Below are positions 385 to 6,689 of a DNA stretch of 6,689 bases, one piece after another. The stretch lies in the IMG/VR virus record IMGVR_UViG_2667527657_000005; one strand, written 5' to 3'. Within the stretch, counting starts at the first letter, position 1. Every line of letters starts with the position of its first letter. The notes beneath the pieces were generated by a model. The model ran no database searches and had not been told where the DNA came from. It saw nothing but the letters and a program-made list of their open reading frames with translations. Made by a program: the position numbers and the translations under genes. Source of the DNA: a virus (Duplodnaviria > Heunggongvirae > Uroviricota > Caudoviricetes).

Positions 385-579
385 TCAGGCTACCTCACCC
401 GTCCCGGATACCGAGAACGTTTCGTCCAGCAACTGGAGAGAGTTCGACGGTGGCATCATTGCCCATGCCGGAGGCGCTGGAGGTTTCGGCTGAGGATGGC
501 ACAGGGCATTTTCCTTTGACGAGCACCCGACCACCATTATCAAGCTTGCGCCGAAGAGCATCATTTTCAGCTTTCGCAT
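385..579 (-). CDS. Rz1: Rz1-like o-spanin (outer-membrane lipoprotein) embedded in the +1 frame of Rz; 3' end runs into the IS
   Basis: ATG at 577-579. Product [44 protein letters not shown]... has a lipoprotein signal with lipobox VVGC and a proline-rich mature region, matching lambda Rz1 (MLKLKMML...VVGC...PPPPPAW). It lies wholly inside Rz in another frame. Only codons up to ~398 are native; the last ~4 codons and the stop come from IS sequence. Confidence 0.7.
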
Positions 580-799
580 CAGCTAACTCCTTCGTGTATT
601 TAGCATCGAGTGCATCAGCATCACGCTGGCGCTGCTGCATGTCAGTAATGGTTGCGTTCGCCAGCTTCAGTTCTCCGGCGTTTTTGTCGCGCTGCTCTTT
701 GTAGGTAATGGCGTTATCACGGTAATGATTAACAGCCCATGACAGGCAGACGATGATGCAGATAACCAGAGCGGAGATAATCGCGGTGACTCTGCTCAT
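395..799 (-). CDS. Rz: Rz-like i-spanin (inner-membrane spanin subunit), C-terminally truncated by the IS insertion
   Basis: ATG at 797-799 overlaps the endolysin stop (ATGA). Product [83 protein letters not shown]... has an N-terminal TM anchor and a coiled-coil periplasmic domain closely resembling lambda Rz (lambda sequence recalled from memory). The ORF ends in a TGA at 395-397 supplied by the first three bases of the IS terminus, so the native C-terminus (roughly 15-20 aa by comparison with lambda Rz, 153 aa) is missing. The six-frame track's upstream extension to 814 uses a TTG and is not favoured. Confidence 0.8.
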
Positions 800-1329
800 T
801 GATCTATCCCCCAACAGGCTAATGCGCTTTCCTGGTCACGACGAATAACCTGTCCATAGCAGTTATTTGAACGTATGCGGCAATCGCGCCCAACATCTTT
901 TATCCACCAGCGAATCGCCTCGCATGCGCCCTTACGATCACCGGCATTCAGCCGCTTATAAAACGTCGACGGGAAACACTTACCGGGGCCAATGTTATAG
1001 GGGCAAAATGACGCTATACCCGCTTTCTGGGGTTCGGTCAGAGGTACTTTAATATTGCGCTCCACCCATGCCAGCGCCTTATCACGTTCAATAGCGTTAA
1101 CCTGGTCACATTTTTCCTTCGACAGCTTCATTCCCGGTATGACAGGCTTACCATCCACCATTGTGGCACCACGACAGATGGTCCATATGCCAGAACCATC
1201 ACGGTATGCCGTTGTGTGATTACCCTCTTTTTCGTTCAGAAACTGGTCAAGTATCTGGGGAGCAGACGCGCCTGCGGCAATCAGCGCCAGAACAGCAGCC
1301 GACAGGCCGTATTTGATTTTTGCGCTCAT
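796..1329 (-). CDS. R: Phage endolysin, T4-lysozyme-like (GH24) muramidase with N-terminal signal-anchor-release (SAR) domain
   Basis: 177-aa ORF, ATG at 1327-1329. N-terminus [25 protein letters not shown] is a weakly hydrophobic Gly/Ala/Ser-rich segment typical of SAR endolysins (P21 R type). It is followed by a catalytic E...D...T arrangement ([18 protein letters not shown]) as in lysozyme-family endolysins. From memory it strongly resembles the E. coli cryptic-prophage lysozyme RrrQ; unverified. Sits between holin and Rz as expected. Confidence 0.9.
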
Positions 1330-1394: not shown

Positions 1395-2024
1395 TCAGCC
1401 CCGGCTGGATCCAGTCATCAGGCTCTTTCTTAAAGGGGGAGTATTGAAATCACGAAGAAGAGCCTCCCGCACCGCAGCATCCATGTCTGCACCACTGGCA
1501 AGTGCTTCAATCTCTGCCGCCACCTGCAAATACCCCATGCAACGGCCAATGCGTTTCATAACTCTGGTGTTTTCGTCTTTCAGGCATCTGATAGCGAGAT
1601 TAATAATTTTCAGGCAGTGATGATGCGATGCCCGGACAGGTTTTCCGTTCTCATAAACGACGAACTCACCCTCTTCACAGGAAACCCTGAAAGGCCGATG
1701 GGGTTCCTGGTCTTTATCCGGTGCAGACGCAATAAAATCACTTTTATGCTCTTCCTCTCCGGCACTGTTAACCGTAATGACGTACTCAGGCCGCAGGTAA
1801 GCCGCCTCTTTTTCTGACAATGCGGCCGGTAAAAACTTTTCCTGCAAAAACTTCATAAAAGTCTCGTGAGCGACTTTGTGGCAGTAATCGTAAATCGCCG
1901 CATAATGCTCATCGCGGCGTTTGTTTTCATCTTCAGAACTCACCAACGCCGACAATTTTTTATTAAGCTCAGTGATTTCATTTTCCAGGTGATTGAATCG
2001 CTGATTCATTTCTTCATGCTTCAT
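1395..2024 (-). CDS. Hypothetical protein (209 aa), no family recognised; inserted between holin and endolysin
   Basis: ATG at 2022-2024 lies 3 nt after the holin TAA (2028-2030) and is preceded by GGGGAGAG, giving a Shine-Dalgarno with 6-nt spacing. Uninterrupted 209-codon frame with TGA at 1395-1397. Predicted N-terminal coiled coil (MKHEEMNQRFNHLENEITELNKKLSALV...), no TM segment, His/Cys-containing C-terminal half (RASHHHCLKIINLAIRCLK). I recognise no catalytic motif. Confidence 0.7.
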   Translation of the reverse strand: MKHEEMNQRFNHLENEITELNKKLSALVSSEDENKRRDEHYAAIYDYCHKVAHETFMKFLQEKFLPAALSEKEAAYLRPEYVITVNSAGEEEHKSDFIASAPDKDQEPHRPFRVSCEEGEFVVYENGKPVRASHHHCLKIINLAIRCLKDENTRVMKRIGRCMGYLQVAAEIEALASGADMDAAVREALLRDFNTPPLRKSLMTGSSRG

Positions 2025-2027
2025 TAT

Positions 2028-2243
2028 TTACTCTCCCCGTGCAGCCTTACGCTTGTCTTCTCTTATTTTGAAATACAGATTCGTCAGATAAGTCAGAAGC
2101 CCCAGAAGCAGACTTCCCAGCACACCAATCGCAGCCCACTGTGATGGCCTGACCTGATCCAACCACTGCAAAAACCAGTAGCCGGCACTGCCGGCGGAGG
2201 TGCCGTAGGCAATGCCCGTTGAAATTTTGTCCATGGATTTCAT
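2028..2243 (-). CDS. S: Class II holin / pinholin of the phage 21 S (S21) family, with dual-start motif
   Basis: 71-aa [74 protein letters not shown]. Two hydrophobic helices and a charged C-terminal tail. Starts at Met1 and Met4 (MKSM) match the S21-71 antiholin / S21-68 holin arrangement. Strong Shine-Dalgarno GGAGGTGA upstream of the ATG at 2241-2243. Pairs with the SAR endolysin downstream. Confidence 0.88.
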
Positions 2244-2403
2244 AGCCTCACCTCCGCAAATAACGGATGGCGTAGTTTTACACTGAGAAATGAAAGGGAT
2301 TTGAAAAGAAAAAAACGCAAAAGCGGGCGAAACGATATATACAGTAAGGAAAGCACTCTATCCAACAAACCACCCACAGTTAATCGGAATAAAAGCAGAG
2401 TGC

Positions 2404-2476
2404 TTATGAATGATCGCACGCCCGAAGGTTAGTATTTCTGCACAGCAATTTTGCAAAAAAAGGCGATCATTCATAA
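2404..2476. repeat. Perfect 14-bp inverted repeat (TTATGAATGATCGC / GCGATCATTCATAA) with 45-bp spacer, in non-coding DNA
   Basis: Read directly: arms at 2404-2417 and 2463-2476, each containing a GATC. Flanked by two further hairpin-capable inverted repeats (2351-2359/2397-2405 and 2484-2494/2519-2529). Confidence 0.65.
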
Positions 2477-2535
2477 CTTAAACGTCTTTCAGTCACTCCG
2501 GGATTTCCCATCATCGCAGACTGAAAGACTCTGAC

Positions 2536-2610
<75 letters not shown>

Positions 2611-2613
2611 ATA

Positions 2614-2689
<76 letters not shown>

Positions 2690-2691
2690 GC

Positions 2692-2768
2692 TGGCCCACC
2701 ACCGAGGACTCGAACCTCGCACCGTCAACTTAGAAGGTTGATGCTCTATCCGGATGAGCTAGTGGTGG
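2692..2768 (-). tRNA. tRNA-Arg (anticodon UCU, reads AGA)
   Basis: Reverse complement CCACCACTAGCTCATCCGGATAGAGCATCAACCTTCTAAGTTGACGGTGCGAGGTTCGAGTCCTCGGTGGTGGGCCA. Perfect 7-bp acceptor stem (C1-G72), anticodon stem TCAAC/GTTGA with loop CTTCTAA, T stem CGAGG/CCTCG, encoded CCA. A rare-codon tRNA of the kind carried by lambdoid/Stx-type phages downstream of Q. Confidence 0.8.
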
Positions 2769-2769
2769 T

Positions 2770-2846
2770 TGGTGGCCCTTGCTGGACTTGAACCAGCGAC
2801 CTGGCGATTATGAGTCGCTCGCTCTGACCAACTGAGCTAAAGGGCC
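2770..2846 (-). tRNA. tRNA with CAU anticodon, most likely tRNA-Ile2 (lysidine-modified, reads AUA); tRNA-Met not excluded
   Basis: Reverse complement GGCCCTTTAGCTCAGTTGGTCAGAGCGAGCGACTCATAATCGCCAGGTCGCTGGTTCAAGTCCAGCAAGGGCCACCA. Acceptor GGCCCTT/AAGGGCC, anticodon loop CTCATAA, T-loop TTCAAGT, encoded CCA. Very similar to E. coli ileX/ileY-type tRNA-Ile2 from memory, and in the position of ileZ in Stx-type phages. Confidence 0.8.
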
Positions 2847-2865
2847 GGAGGCAGAATAATAACCA

Positions 2866-2904
2866 TATGTCATCACATCTGCAAACTCATCTGACCACCA
2901 GCGT
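2866..2904 (-). promoter_or_regulatory. Putative sigma70 promoter for the tRNA array
   Basis: Minus strand reads TTGCAG - 17 nt (ATGTGATGACATATGGT) - TATTAT - 9 nt - tRNA 5' end. The -35 matches TTGACA at 4/6 and the -10 matches TATAAT at 5/6 with ideal spacing. Sequence-only prediction. Confidence 0.4.
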
Positions 2905-2932: not shown

Positions 2933-2960
2933 ATAAAAAACCCGCCCGGAGGCGGGTTTA
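2933..2960 (-). terminator. Rho-independent terminator, candidate tR' (late terminator downstream of Q)
   Basis: Perfect 6-bp GC stem CCCGCC/GGCGGG (2941-2946 / 2951-2956) with 4-nt loop, followed on the minus strand by a six-U run (plus 2935-2940 AAAAAA). Located ~85 nt downstream of the Q stop, where lambdoid phages place tR'. Confidence 0.6.
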
Positions 2961-3045: not shown

Positions 3046-3426
3046 TCAGGGATGTTCAATATATTTGTCCATTTCTAACCGGACACCCAACATCATCAAC
3101 ATTCCTTCCACCACCCCCTCGGCTTTTTGTAGCTTCTTTCCTATATAACCATCTGAGCATCCATGCTTCCGCGCCAGCGTCATGAATGTCATCCCAAACA
3201 CGTAGTAGTCAACCAGCAAGTCATGTAGATCGTTGTTGTTCCGGTTAAGGCGGGCCATACACCCACATATAACCATCGCGTCATCGTCACAGCATTGCGG
3301 GCGGGATTTTACTTTTGAAGGGATTAATCCCTTAAAACCGGCAGCAATGGACGACCAGGTCACATCCTCATGATTATTAGCCACCCACGCGCCCCAGCGC
3401 TCAAGAACCTGCTGAATATCACGCAT
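3046..3426 (-). CDS. Q: Late-gene antiterminator Q (phage 82 / QuuD-like family)
   Basis: Product [60 protein letters not shown]... carries the conserved PQCCDDDA segment and ~126-aa length of 82-type Q proteins; resembles E. coli QuuD as I remember it. ATG at 3424-3426 overlaps the end of ninH (ATGCGTGA). The six-frame extension to 3462 starts at a TTG with no Shine-Dalgarno and is not favoured. Confidence 0.85.
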
Positions 3427-3619
3427 CACTGTCTTTACCCCTGTCCCATCCACGATGAACAATCAGAACACCATCAACAATGGCGTGCCCTTTGCCCTCT
3501 TTATCTTCAGCATATTTTCTTACCGTGGCGCGATTACAGTTCAGCATTCGTGAAACTTCGGTCATATTACCTCGTGTCTGGATAAGCAGTTCCGGTATCG
3601 TTTGAATTTTGACGCTCAT
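3419..3619 (-). CDS. ninH: NinH-like small DNA-binding protein
   Basis: Product [61 protein letters not shown]... is closely similar to lambda NinH (MTFSVKTIPDMLVEAYGNQTEVARRLKCSRGTVRKYVDDKDGKMHAIVNDVLMVHRGW, recalled) and has the same position immediately upstream of Q. ATG at 3617-3619 preceded by GGAGAG; the track's start at 3622 is a TTG. Confidence 0.82.
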
Positions 3620-3713
3620 CAAATACTCTCCGGTTCGGTGATTTTTATCCCGGGCTTTCCACCAGGGACATAATGATCGCGCACAAGCCAGGGCAAAACA
3701 AACTCATGGCGCA

Positions 3714-3971
3714 TCAGCGCAGCGCCTCCTGCACCAGTTTTTCAAACTTTCCGACTCTGGTTTCCAGCTCTGCCACACAGTCCACCAGCTCATCTACTGC
3801 TTTCTGTGCGCGATGCTTCGCCTGCATCAGTTCCCGAAGCGCGGGTACCATATCTTTACGGATAGCATCTTTTGTTATGCCCGTTTTTTCGAGTTGTTCA
3901 GCATGACGCAGCATTTCCTGCGCGTGTTTACGCAATTGTTCAGGGGTAAAAGTCATTGTCTGGTTGTTCAA
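3714..3971 (-). CDS. Hypothetical small protein (80-85 aa), predicted all-helical; nin-region gene of unknown function
   Basis: ORF MNNQTMTFTPEQLRKHAQEMLRHAEQLEKTGITKDAIRKDMVPALRELMQAKHRAQKAVDELVDCVAELETRVGKFEKLVQEALR. A TTG start at 3969-3971 overlaps the helicase TGA (TTGA) and has GGAG 7 nt upstream; an alternative ATG at 3954-3956 lacks a Shine-Dalgarno. No family recognised. Real coding status is moderately supported by operon context only. Confidence 0.55.
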   Translation of the reverse strand: MNNQTMTFTPEQLRKHAQEMLRHAEQLEKTGITKDAIRKDMVPALRELMQAKHRAQKAVDELVDCVAELETRVGKFEKLVQEALR

Positions 3972-5359
3972 AAGAAACGCTCCATCTTACTGCTGTCAGT
4001 TCGTTTATTACTGTATCTGCGCGGATTGCCGGGCTTCATGGGAGTGGAAAGCACCCGTGCACTTTCCTGGTCCACAGGCAGAAAATGTCCGTTATAAAAA
4101 CGCCGGTAAATCGTTCCCAGAGAACCGTTACGTTGTTTCGTGATATTGATTTCTGCGATGCCCCTGGCCTGCGTATCCGGGTTGTACACTTCATCCCTGT
4201 AAAGCATCAGAATGATGTCTGCATCCGCCTCTATTTCTCCGGAATTTTTCAGGTCTGAGTTCATGGGACGTTTATTGGGTCTGGACTCCACACCGCGGGA
4301 GAGCTGGCTCAGCGCAATCAACGGAAAACCACCGGATTTTGCCAGGCCTTTAAGCCCCTTTGAGATTTCACCCACGGCAAGGTCATGACGCCCCGTGGTT
4401 CGGGTTTTTATCAGCCCGAGATAATCAACCACCACCAGCGCCGTTTCCGGATATTTAATCAGGTGGTGTTTCGTTGTTGCGCATATCTCATCAATGGCCA
4501 GGTTCGCCTGGTCCACCATCCAGATATTGCGCCCGGTCATCCGCCCCACCCCTTGTGAGAAACGCGTCCAGTCTTCATCTTCAAAGTGAGCCACAGATTT
4601 CAGGCGTGATACTGGCATCCCTCCAGCCGCAGACACCATACGTTCACCAATCTGGATGTTCGCCATCTCCATGGTGAACAGAAGCACACCATGCCCCTGC
4701 TCAGTCACCTTGTCGATGATGTCCAGCGCAAGTTCGGTTTTCCCCATCGAAGGACGGGCGGCAATGAATACCAGGTCTCCGGGCTCCATACCGCCTGTTT
4801 TTGCGTCCAGTTCATCAATACCGGTCATCAACGTCCTGGATTTCTCCAGCCCCTGATTCCGGCATTCAACACGCTCAACCACTTCCGGAAGCACATCATC
4901 AATATGTACCGGCTGAATGACGCCCTTTCCTGTCGACAGTGTGACCATCATGTTCTGCGCATCCTTCAGGGCATCTTCAGCTGCTTCACAGGTATGCGCA
5001 TCACGTAATTTCTGCAGCGCCTCATTCAGTGTTTTTTCTGCATCGCGCAGTGCGGCATTGCGCCGCAACGCTGCAACATAGTGCTCCAGTGAAGACTTCA
5101 CCCAGGTTTTACGCCCGGTATCAGTAATCACCGGGGCAAGTTCCGGCATCTCATTACACAACAGCACGGGGTCAATCACTCCTGAAACACGGGCCTGTCT
5201 GCAGATGCCTGTATAGATATCCTGATACGCTCGTACAGAAAAAACGTCCGCTGGCAGTGTGGCCAGAATATCCATCACTTCAGGATCTGCTCCGCGCAGA
5301 AAGAACGCGCCGATGACAGCGCCTTCAAGGTCATCGTTACGCCATACTGGAGTTGTCAT
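3968..5359 (-). CDS. dnaB: Replicative DNA helicase, DnaB family (phage-encoded, P22 gene 12-like)
   Basis: 463-aa ORF with Walker A FIAARPSMGKTELALD, Walker B-like LVVVDYLGLI and DnaB-type N-terminal and C-terminal RecA-like domains. ATG at 5357-5359 overlaps the dnaC-like stop (ATGA). Confidence 0.9.
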   Translation of the reverse strand: MTTPVWRNDDLEGAVIGAFFLRGADPEVMDILATLPADVFSVRAYQDIYTGICRQARVSGVIDPVLLCNEMPELAPVITDTGRKTWVKSSLEHYVAALRRNAALRDAEKTLNEALQKLRDAHTCEAAEDALKDAQNMMVTLSTGKGVIQPVHIDDVLPEVVERVECRNQGLEKSRTLMTGIDELDAKTGGMEPGDLVFIAARPSMGKTELALDIIDKVTEQGHGVLLFTMEMANIQIGERMVSAAGGMPVSRLKSVAHFEDEDWTRFSQGVGRMTGRNIWMVDQANLAIDEICATTKHHLIKYPETALVVVDYLGLIKTRTTGRHDLAVGEISKGLKGLAKSGGFPLIALSQLSRGVESRPNKRPMNSDLKNSGEIEADADIILMLYRDEVYNPDTQARGIAEINITKQRNGSLGTIYRRFYNGHFLPVDQESARVLSTPMKPGNPRRYSNKRTDSSKMERFF

Positions 5360-6254: not shown

Positions 6255-6689
6255 TGAAGTGGCACACTGAATTTGGCCACCTGAACAGAGGTGATATGCT
6301 CACCTCAGAACAACACAGGTGCTCCAATGAAAAAAAGAAATTTTAGCGCAGAGTTTAAACGCGAATCCGCTCAACTGGTTGTTGACCAGAAATACACGGT
6401 GGCAGATGCCGCCAAAGCTATGGATGTTGGCCTTTCCACAATGACAAGATGGGTCAAACAACTGCGTGATGAGCGTCAGGGCAAAACACCAAAAGCCTCC
6501 CCCATTACCCCGGAACAAATTGAAATCCGTGTGGGCATTTCAGGCATGAGAACAGACTCGCGTTTTTCCGGAGTATCAGCGGAATTATTGATTAAGAAAC
6601 ACTCGACGCAGAGCGAAATTTTATGCAACAGCGGCTGCACTGCACAGGGATTATTTATCAGTTGATATGCTGTGCCATGATACGTCCTA
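6255..6689 (+). mobile_element. IS3-family insertion sequence (IS911-like), left end and rearranged orfA; continues to or beyond the window end
   Basis: Terminus begins TGAAGTGGCACACTGAATTTGGCCACC at ~6255 (TG-initiated IS3-family end), followed 72 nt later by an orfA whose first 67 residues match IS911 OrfA as remembered. Sequence after ~6528 no longer matches OrfA, so there is an internal deletion or a second rearrangement. Confidence 0.7.
6327..6665 (+). pseudogene. IS911-like transposase OrfA, disrupted: N-terminal ~67 aa intact, C-terminus replaced by unrelated sequence
   Basis: [68 protein letters not shown] matches IS911 OrfA (recalled). It then continues [14 protein letters not shown]... 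instead of the expected leucine-zipper segment (ELRKKLQRIEMENEILKKA...). The track's ORF start at 6291 is a GTG upstream of the authentic ATG at 6327. Confidence 0.6.

Follow-up and report, generated by a model that had tools for sequence, protein, structure and literature searches.

Introduction

Several small RNAs (sRNAs) of lambdoid prophages are encoded between the late promoter pR' and the holin gene S, namely AgvB/AsxR (PMC4104026), PasA/PasC/PasD (PMC8550237; bioRxiv 10.64898/2026.05.13.724894), STnc100 and the StxS/IsrJ-like pR' leader RNAs (PMC7547250). AgvB/AsxR are 51-60 nt long with a conserved 3' part of 42 nt and, like PasA, are convergent with transcription from pR'. Here we describe an element found in the same niche in a 6,689-nt stretch of Caudoviricetes DNA (IMG/VR record IMGVR_UViG_2667527657_000005), the whole of which is called the window below. 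The element occupies the interval 2244-2535 (292 nt), from a tRNA-Gly gene to the start of the holin gene, where an initial annotation had noticed three inverted repeats. It resembles the sRNAs mentioned above by its location between Q/pR' and a lambdoid holin, its non-coding nature, its terminator and its status of cargo. It differs from them by the lack of any sequence or Rfam-model similarity, by its orientation, which is co-directional with late transcription, and by its fusion to tRNA genes, whereas those sRNAs have their own transcription starts and no tRNA fusion.

The other related systems are RNAs derived from tRNA operons. In E. coli, the trailer of the glyW-cysT-leuZ tRNA operon gives rise to 3'ETS-leuZ (3'ETS: 3' external transcribed spacer), an sRNA sponge reportedly described by Lalaouna et al. 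in 2015. The tRNA cluster of phage T4 yields the stable RNAs C and D (species 1 and 2), which are structured non-tRNA RNAs co-transcribed with and processed from a phage tRNA cluster, as is proposed here for the element; in contrast to the latter, T4 is a virulent phage and its tRNA cluster lies outside a late leader. The element shares with 3'ETS-leuZ the position between the last tRNA and the terminator, the absence of coding function and the terminator hairpin followed by a U run, and it would likewise be freed by tRNA 3' maturation. In contrast to 3'ETS-leuZ (53 nt), it is about four times longer (∼230 nt), highly structured with three modular hairpins, and encoded by a prophage within the late leader. 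3'ETS-leuZ is entered as 3'ESTleuZ in the supplement of PMC8550237.

The interval contains a conserved, strand-specific and modular RNA structure fused to a tRNA operon with promoter-like and terminator signals. The explanation that we favour, and that we consider about equally likely to be right or wrong as a whole, is that a prophage tRNA operon has its 3' trailer and terminator in the interval, from which a stable regulatory RNA is released. The structured-RNA and operon parts of this explanation are much firmer than its trans-acting part.

Results

The repeat search of the window returned a perfect 14-bp inverted repeat (2404-2417/2463-2476, 14/14, spacer of 45 nt), a perfect 11-bp repeat (2484-2494/2519-2529, 11/11, spacer of 24 nt) and a perfect 9-bp repeat (2351-2359/2397-2405, 9/9, spacer of 37 nt), which are exactly the pairs listed in the initial annotation. 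As had also been reported there, the 9-bp repeat overlaps the left arm of the 14-bp repeat (by 2 nt) and the 11-bp repeat begins 6 nt past the 3' end of tRNA-Gly(TCC), located at 2536-2610 on the minus strand. The view that such repeats are improbable by chance was supported by 300 dinucleotide-preserving shuffles of the whole window, scored for perfect repeats with a loop of at most 60 nt: repeats of at least 14 nt are expected at 0.003 per window and those of at least 11 nt at 0.083 per window. All the inverted repeats of at least 11 nt in the real window fall within 2244-2535.

Folding of the minus-strand transcript, which had been suggested as a check, gave three consecutive hairpins, H1, H2 and H3 (Table 1), with a z-score of -3.3 versus -2.0 for the plus strand. 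Homologues were gathered in two sets, the first by BLAST and the second by searching IMG/VR, and one genome of each species, for exact anchors taken from the H2 loop and the H3 strand. In 43 distinct full-length copies, RNAalifold recovered the same three hairpins with 57 pairs, 12 of which carry compensatory double changes; the covariation that had been proposed as a test across homologous prophages is thus present, with the pairing conserved. In these copies 98.4% of the cells are paired, versus 40-47% when the partners are slid by 1-3 columns, and none of 500 shuffles reached the observed covariation score. Furthermore, the predicted-pair cells comprise 353 G-U and 16 A-C combinations, and this excess indicates that the pairing exists only in the transcript of late direction. 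H3 copies taken from varied contexts (45 distinct copies) have different stem sequences and retain the pairing, with 94.3% of paired cells versus at most 52% with slid partners. The inverted repeats form the stems of these three hairpins, which are conserved as RNA in the late-sense (minus-strand) transcript. Conservation, compensatory changes and the asymmetry between G-U and A-C therefore bear out the structured RNA linked to the tRNAs that the initial annotation had listed among its possibilities.

The same annotation had also considered that the repeats might act as DNA, either as palindromic operators for a dimeric regulator or as sites sensitive to Dam methylation. The perfect palindromic arms and the GATC present in each 14-bp arm of the window are compatible with such sites. 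However, the arm sequences drift among homologues while the RNA pairing persists, and the numerous G-U pairs correspond to A-C mismatches in a DNA palindrome on the other strand, so that the symmetry exists on one strand only and a symmetric double-stranded site is ruled out. The GATC observed in the window is not kept in the homologues, as judged by reading the alignments: it is replaced by GGGCGC/GCGCTC in HK639-type copies and is missing from one arm (GAGCG in the 5' arm) in some E. coli copies. The spacers of 24-45 nt are also atypical of operators. A role of the repeats as DNA sites is for these reasons extremely improbable.

In H1, helices 1 and 2 are 98-99% paired and two pairs show compensatory changes. 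The internal loop matches the kink-turn (K-turn) consensus C/GAU/GA...GA/G, with C2512, the bulge G A U, then G2508 and A2507 on one side and G2494 and A2493, followed by G2492, on the other. The tandem GA/GA is kept in nearly all the listed variants, in which the bulge, the third pair (3b-3n) and the terminal loop vary. By its sequence, this loop fits the criteria for a kink-turn, namely a canonical stem, a 3-nt bulge, tandem G-A/A-G pairs and a non-canonical stem. A box C/D-like signature can be read in the same region (2492-2512), where AUGAUGG faces CGGA with tandem G-A/A-G. The stem, the 3-nt bulge, the tandem G-A/A-G and the U-G and G-C pairs are those of a box C/D kink-turn (RUGAUGA opposite CUGA), whereas the guide region and the C'/D' boxes of a box C/D RNA are absent. 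With Rfam 15 and the interval alone (E up to 10), the sole weak matches were three archaeal and eukaryotic box C/D models, built on the K-turn motif, with 10-13 bits versus gathering scores of 37-70. To our knowledge, no L7Ae-type protein exists in E. coli.

The branched hairpin H2 contains an inner hairpin, H2a, of 8 bp with a conserved 9-nt loop, AAAUUGCUG. Pairing is kept at 97.3% in helix 3, with 5 compensatory pairs, and at 99.4% in helix 4. In HK639-type copies, the H2a loop and its flank (2590-2601 of the HK639 locus, minus strand) have 12 nt (AAUUGCUGUGUG) in common with a single-stranded region of E. coli RprA, and the window carries 10 nt of this stretch at 2441-2450. Since about 0.1 such matches are expected by estimate, the RprA likeness was rejected as within chance, and a 10-nt likeness to GcvB was judged in the same way. 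In H3, the outer stem covaries and the inner helices, UCCGAU/GUUGGA and AACU/GGUU, are rich in wobble pairs. Its GU-rich 3' strand, GGGUGGUUUGUUGG, is near-invariant, including in the loci retrieved via the H2 anchor. The H3 covariance model, R1, gives the window copy 74.7 bits and has no match at E up to 10 in the phage lambda and E2348/69 loci. The three modules are separable: some copies have no H1, H2 being then 1-2 nt past tRNA-Gly, others have no H3, and H3 is also found solo.

Upstream of the hairpins, the CCA end is encoded in all four tRNAs of the cluster, which RefSeq annotates at the identical locus. A TTGNNN-17 nt-TANNNT pattern followed by a GC-rich discriminator is found 8-10 nt ahead of the first tRNA in 33 out of 51 distinct upstream contexts, and the promoter-like spacing is constant at 17 nt across 24 different spacer sequences. 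Downstream, an intrinsic terminator is present at most 120 nt past H3 in 47 of the 69 distinct copies and is represented by more than 6 unrelated sequences. In most homologues it reads GCCCGC-UUUU-GCGGGC followed by a U run (6 bp, -12.3 kcal/mol). The E. coli-type copies form a graded series by their 3' arm: GCGGGC (-12.3 kcal/mol, 6 distinct copies), GCGGGT (-10.9, 5 copies), GCGGTT (-6.6, 6 copies) and GCGTTT (-3.3, 1 copy). The window carries the last and weakest allele, in which only 3 bp are possible before a 12-nt U-rich run and which was missed by the terminator scan of the window; along the series, the U run lengthens as the hairpin energy weakens.

The layout is therefore that of a 3'ETS, with H1 placed 6 nt past the CCA of tRNA-Gly and the terminator after H3 (in its weak form in the window). 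The tRNAs and hairpins are moreover flanked, as sequence patterns, by what defines a moron, its own promoter upstream and its own terminator downstream. Judged by these signals, the unit composed of promoter, tRNAs, three-hairpin trailer and terminator is an autonomous moron inserted in the late leader.

Among the four tRNAs, the second (window 2692-2768, minus strand) deserves a separate mention. About 60 related loci share one scaffold, CCGCCACTAGCTCATC...GGTGGCGGxCCA, in which the anticodon loop varies: the anticodon is mostly Lys-TTT, the window has Arg-TCT, and Phe-AAA, Leu-TAA and a 'Stop' TTA occur elsewhere. Some shortened forms of 73-74 nt have loops that ARAGORN could not read. This tRNA seems to have a hypervariable anticodon.

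The succession of structured RNA, terminator and lysis genes also recalls an attenuator. In such a cis-regulatory leader, the RNA would modify the polymerase, as does put of HK022, or sense a ligand or the state of a tRNA, as does a T-box, and would gate the entry into S of transcription coming from the tRNA promoter or from pR'. The K-turn-like motif of H1, as in many riboswitch and T-box leaders, the graded strength of the terminator alleles and the presence in H3 of GGGUGGU, which we take to be the core of the T-box sequence, are in agreement with this possibility. However, H3 and the terminator share no sequence and so cannot form mutually exclusive folds, the terminators are unrelated between variants and absent from some copies, H1 is dispensable in several lineages, and no Rfam T-box or other riboswitch matched at E up to 10. 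The T-box itself was rejected on the absence of an RF00230 match at E up to 10, on the lack of a strand shared by H3 and the terminator and on the differences between the terminators of the variants. The put antiterminator RNAs of HK022 and HK639 are cis-encoded adjacent stem-loops situated upstream of terminators in the early pL and pR operons. The element likewise consists of adjacent stem-loops upstream of terminators, and HK639 bears a copy of it; in contrast to put, its position is late and no similarity was seen between them, and a terminator-proof polymerase sent from a prophage promoter towards the lysis genes would be harmful, constitutive antitermination of this kind being lethal to the lysogen. 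Control of terminator read-through by the element is consequently distinctly unlikely.

By BLAST, the element was found in 530 of 5426 complete E. coli genomes (∼10%) with 95-99% identity, in four coliphages at ∼97% and in HK639 at ∼75%. The species scan added Enterobacter hormaechei, Citrobacter sedlakii, Yokenella regensburgei and Phytobacter ursingii, and Shigella also carries it. In the 129 loci examined, the element is co-oriented with every recognised neighbour gene, downstream of Q and upstream of the holin or lysozyme gene, these neighbours being 31% to 100% identical to the window proteins. It directly follows tRNA-Gly(TCC) in about 100 of these loci, with a gap of 6 nt to H1, or of 1-2 nt to H2 if H1 is absent.

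Another group of explanations takes the interval to be what is left of a small excised element, a cargo site that stands empty, a junk spacer with chance repeats or a gene for a small protein. In their favour, the position is the classical slot of morons and of Stx cargo, HK639 shows a trace of earlier recombination in that its copy is preceded by just the 3' half of tRNA-Gly, and ORFs (open reading frames) exist. Indeed, the statement that the interval is free of ORFs was not upheld, ORFs of 31-59 aa being found on both strands, and a plus-strand ORF of 43 aa is annotated in two phage records. However, the ORFs are disrupted by loss of start codons and by length changes; the small-protein candidate, a minus-strand ORF of 38 aa, was rejected as it is intact in merely 10 of 43 distinct homologues, its ATG being replaced by TTG in 18 of the 43. 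A scar or junk sequence is at odds with the conservation of 95-99% in ∼530 E. coli genomes and of ∼75% with compensatory changes in other lineages, and chance is at odds with the quality of the repeats in the shuffle test. The comparison of the interval with an Stx-type cargo slot is correct for its position between the late-leader tRNAs and S, but the slot is not empty: it holds a conserved module that travels with the tRNA genes and has its own promoter and terminator signals, and the idea of an excision scar is abandoned for the same reason. These explanations taken together are very improbable.

The most serious alternative to a released trailer RNA is that the hairpins act in cis on the late transcript, as elements for its processing or stability. 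The excision of the tRNAs from the Q-antiterminated late RNA would leave the lysis and structural mRNA with a new monophosphorylated 5' end, and the hairpins would be RNase III or RNase E sites, or 5' protective stem-loops, which set the stability and dosage of the holin-endolysin mRNA, no separate trans-acting RNA being involved. Where lysis genes were recognised, the element is always upstream and co-oriented. Lone H3 copies, with neither tRNA nor downstream terminator, are found in mRNA leaders past a pR'/tR'-like unit or just 5' of ORFs, including leaders that precede lysis cassettes with unrelated holins (loci L132, L136, L162, L175, L195 and L199) and positions 5' of another ORF (L160, L179 and L194). 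Furthermore, H1, H2 and H3 shuffle independently, like interchangeable processing signals. Phage RNase III sites, such as those of T7 and lambda, are long hairpins, and the long hairpins of the element (17-19 bp with internal loops) resemble them in outline. On the other side, most tRNA-linked copies have a strong terminator between the hairpins and the holin gene, the distance between hairpin and start codon varies widely, near-invariant loop and strand sequences are needless for pure stabilisers, and a lysis cassette of the same kind is expressed in lambda and phage 21, which do not have the element. We regard this cis-acting role as possible but doubtful.

Some of these leaders contain a further conserved feature. 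In L132, L136, L178, L193 and L195, a unit located ∼60-150 nt upstream of the lone H3 comprises a promoter-like TTGCAA-17 nt-CATATT, a short RNA and a terminator, and has a weak Rfam isrK match (25 bits); in L132, L136 and L165 it lies downstream of an ORF of 219-229 aa (MNAQQ(L/M)EYVRIQLR...). This unit resembles a pR'/tR' unit belonging to another lambdoid lineage. The L136-type lone H3 with its pR'-like unit had no blastn match among the INPHARED phages. In L137, an ORF coding for a hydrophobic peptide of 42 aa (MTQDNQTLKFKPIQVALIGVICVVVSLCGTVFLVRSILFNSF) is located 219 to 91 nt upstream of the H3 anchor in the orientation of the element, and L142 and L046 are similar. As it ends exactly at the start of H2, the hairpins would form there the 3' untranslated region of a small membrane-peptide gene.

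In HK639, the copy is preceded by the 3' 47 nt of tRNA-Gly only (2675-2722, minus strand) and directly followed by an STnc100 match (RF02076, 2206-2411, minus strand, 52.6 bits, above the gathering score), both unannotated. This arrangement shows the leader to be a series of RNA modules that recombination has reshuffled.

The Rfam scans covered the window, the interval alone and six related loci. With the whole window (E up to 1), they returned just the four tRNAs and terminator-driven noise. In the HK639 and lone-H3 loci, H1-H3 were overlapped only by istR (26 bits, E = 0.35) and isrK (23 bits, E = 0.68). Membership of AgvB/AsxR (RF02702, RF02703) was rejected on the absence of an Rfam match and on the structure and G-U asymmetry, which make the element RNA co-directional with late transcription; in addition, the scan showed no terminator-like site on the plus strand within the interval. 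For the Pas RNAs, whose authors define family membership by blastn similarity to the E2348/69 genes (PMC8550237), the sequences of PasA, PasC and PasD2 were taken from NC_011601.1 with the coordinates of Table S6 in that paper. Compared by blastn-short, they had only T-runs of at most 10 nt in common with window 2200-2560, and the E2348/69 esterase-holin spacer had T-runs alone in common with the interval.

The window corresponds to the late-control and lysis region of a lambdoid prophage, carried by the minus strand and truncated by insertion sequences (IS) at either end (Table 1). The sequence of the locus is identical in E. coli CFSAN029787 and ECMA0423 and in Shigella flexneri SFBU1023, and the interval is unannotated in all of them. 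The tR'-like terminator would end the short pR' leader RNA downstream of Q and would form the upstream border of the tRNA module. The order Q, pR', terminator and tRNA is likewise that of phage 21, whose record was annotated from experiments and whose layout, Q-pR'-tR'-tRNA-S21 with 107 nt before S, does not include the element. On the holin side, megablast alignments with phage 21, SfI and many lambda isolates extend only as far as query positions 275-290 (window 2274-2289); by its sequence, the holin-proximal leader is common to phage 21 and lambda-type phages. The late (minus) strand carries a perfect Chi site (GCTGGTGG) at 2895-2902, between tR' and the tRNA promoter, and the octamer is retained across other sequence variants of this spacer. 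Lambdoid phages rich in Chi sites are reported in a 2025 paper (PMC12315714). Between holin and lysozyme, an ORF of 209 aa (1395-2024, minus strand) belongs to no Pfam family; other carriers of the element have a different insert at this position or none.

Table 1. Coordinates of the features in the 6,689-nt window, listed in the direction of late transcription.
Feature	Position	Strand	Description
IS transposase fragments	31-333 and 6291-6665		Pfam
DnaB-type helicase	5359..3968	-	Pfam
NinH	3622..3419	-	Pfam
Antiterminator Q	3462..3046	-	Pfam Phage_antitermQ, E = 5.8e-54
tR'-like intrinsic terminator	2958..2934	-	AAACCCGCCTCCGGGCGGGTTTTTT; 9-bp inverted repeat at 2938/2951
Predicted sigma-70 promoter	2885..2856	-	TTGCAG, 17-nt spacer, TATTAT, GC-rich 9-nt discriminator, then first tRNA; promoter scan
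tRNA cluster	2846..2536	-	Met/Ile2 (CAT), Arg (TCT), Thr (TGT), Gly (TCC); ARAGORN, Rfam 56-70 bits
H1	2529..2484	-	46 nt; outer stem of 11 bp (11-bp repeat), K-turn-like internal loop, GGG/CCC stem, variable loop
H2	2476..2404	-	Basal stem of 14-16 bp (14-bp repeat), branched: inner H2a and small CC-UUCG-GG hairpin
H3	2405..2351	-	Outer stem (9-bp repeat), 7-nt 5' bulge, inner helices, loop NNGGGU
Putative intrinsic terminator, weakened allele	2328..2304	-	GCCCGC-UUUU-GCGUUU and U run
Holin-proximal leader	2244..2289	-	Ribosome-binding site GGAGG and dual-start motif Met-Lys-Ser-Met; outside the RNA module
Holin, phage-21-type class II	2243..2028	-	Pfam Phage_holin_2_1, E = 5.5e-35
Lysozyme	1329..796	-	Pfam
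Rz	814..395	-	Pfam

Discussion

In the mechanism that we propose, the tRNA operon would be transcribed from its own predicted promoter in lysogens and, late in infection, also by Q-dependent read-through. The 3' maturation of tRNA-Gly, by a cleavage of RNase E type after the CCA, would free the trailer as a stable RNA of ∼200-230 nt. Its working parts would be the unpaired or weakly paired H2a loop AAAUUGCUG and H3 strand GGGUGGUUUGUUGG, which could pair with or bind a host or phage partner as do 3'ETS-type and other prophage sRNAs, and the terminator would shield the lysis genes from the transcription of the operon. The sequence downstream of H3, an AU-rich spacer and then the terminator and its U run, has the composition usual for the 3' module of Hfq-dependent sRNAs, which was counted in favour of an sRNA. 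By analogy with the 3'ETS type, Hfq binding and pairing with sRNAs or mRNAs may be candidate properties of the trailer RNA. The proposed mechanism would match the logic of 3'ETS-leuZ and of the sRNAs of the pR'-S interval (PMC4104026, PMC8550237, PMC7547250, bioRxiv 10.64898/2026.05.13.724894).

Several observations weigh against this explanation. The alignments are dominated by two clades, which leaves few independent compensatory events in H1 and H2. As the loci were retrieved with anchors located in the H2 and H3 loops, the apparent conservation of both segments is inflated; the H3 strand is still kept in the loci obtained with the H2 anchor, and the H2 loop is largely kept in those obtained with the H3 anchor. 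With RNAduplex, the H1 loop, the H2a loop and the H3 strand paired with the late-sense window no better than shuffled probes, and no target was found. The lone H3 copies in leaders fit a cis-acting role at least equally well, and HK639 lacks the space for a separate tRNA promoter, which leaves late read-through as the only way to make the RNA there. Finally, no annotation of the element was found in the database records of any copy, and literature searches with sequence strings, HK639, prophage tRNA/sRNA and ETS/trailer yielded no paper describing it.

A further possibility is that H1-H2-H3 is a compact K-turn-containing RNA domain of a new class, and not a base-pairing sRNA, which acts on the transcription or translation machinery or on host defence, H3 being a widespread leader element that times the expression of lysis cassettes. 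Such a domain might couple the read-through of the pre-holin terminator to the status of tRNAs or translation, or might decoy a host nuclease jointly with the neighbouring anticodon-variable tRNA. We consider this quite unlikely, and the release of a trailer RNA from the tRNA operon remains our preferred explanation.

The stretch of lambdoid prophages in which the element resides is already known as a source of regulatory RNAs and toxins for pathogens. The element joins the non-coding RNAs of the prophage late leader, here in the form of a tRNA trailer, and it is a conserved RNA of about one in ten complete E. coli genomes, of Shigella and of several other enterobacterial genera, annotated in no database. 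Whichever role it has, it provides a defined RNA with three separable modules, a K-turn motif, two segments that hardly vary and a terminator with a natural series of alleles. Should it act in cis, it would be an overlooked element in the control of lysis-gene expression. If a stable RNA is released, it would provide the first case of a tRNA-trailer (3'ETS-type) regulator in a phage, and the tRNA morons of prophages would deliver more than tRNAs.

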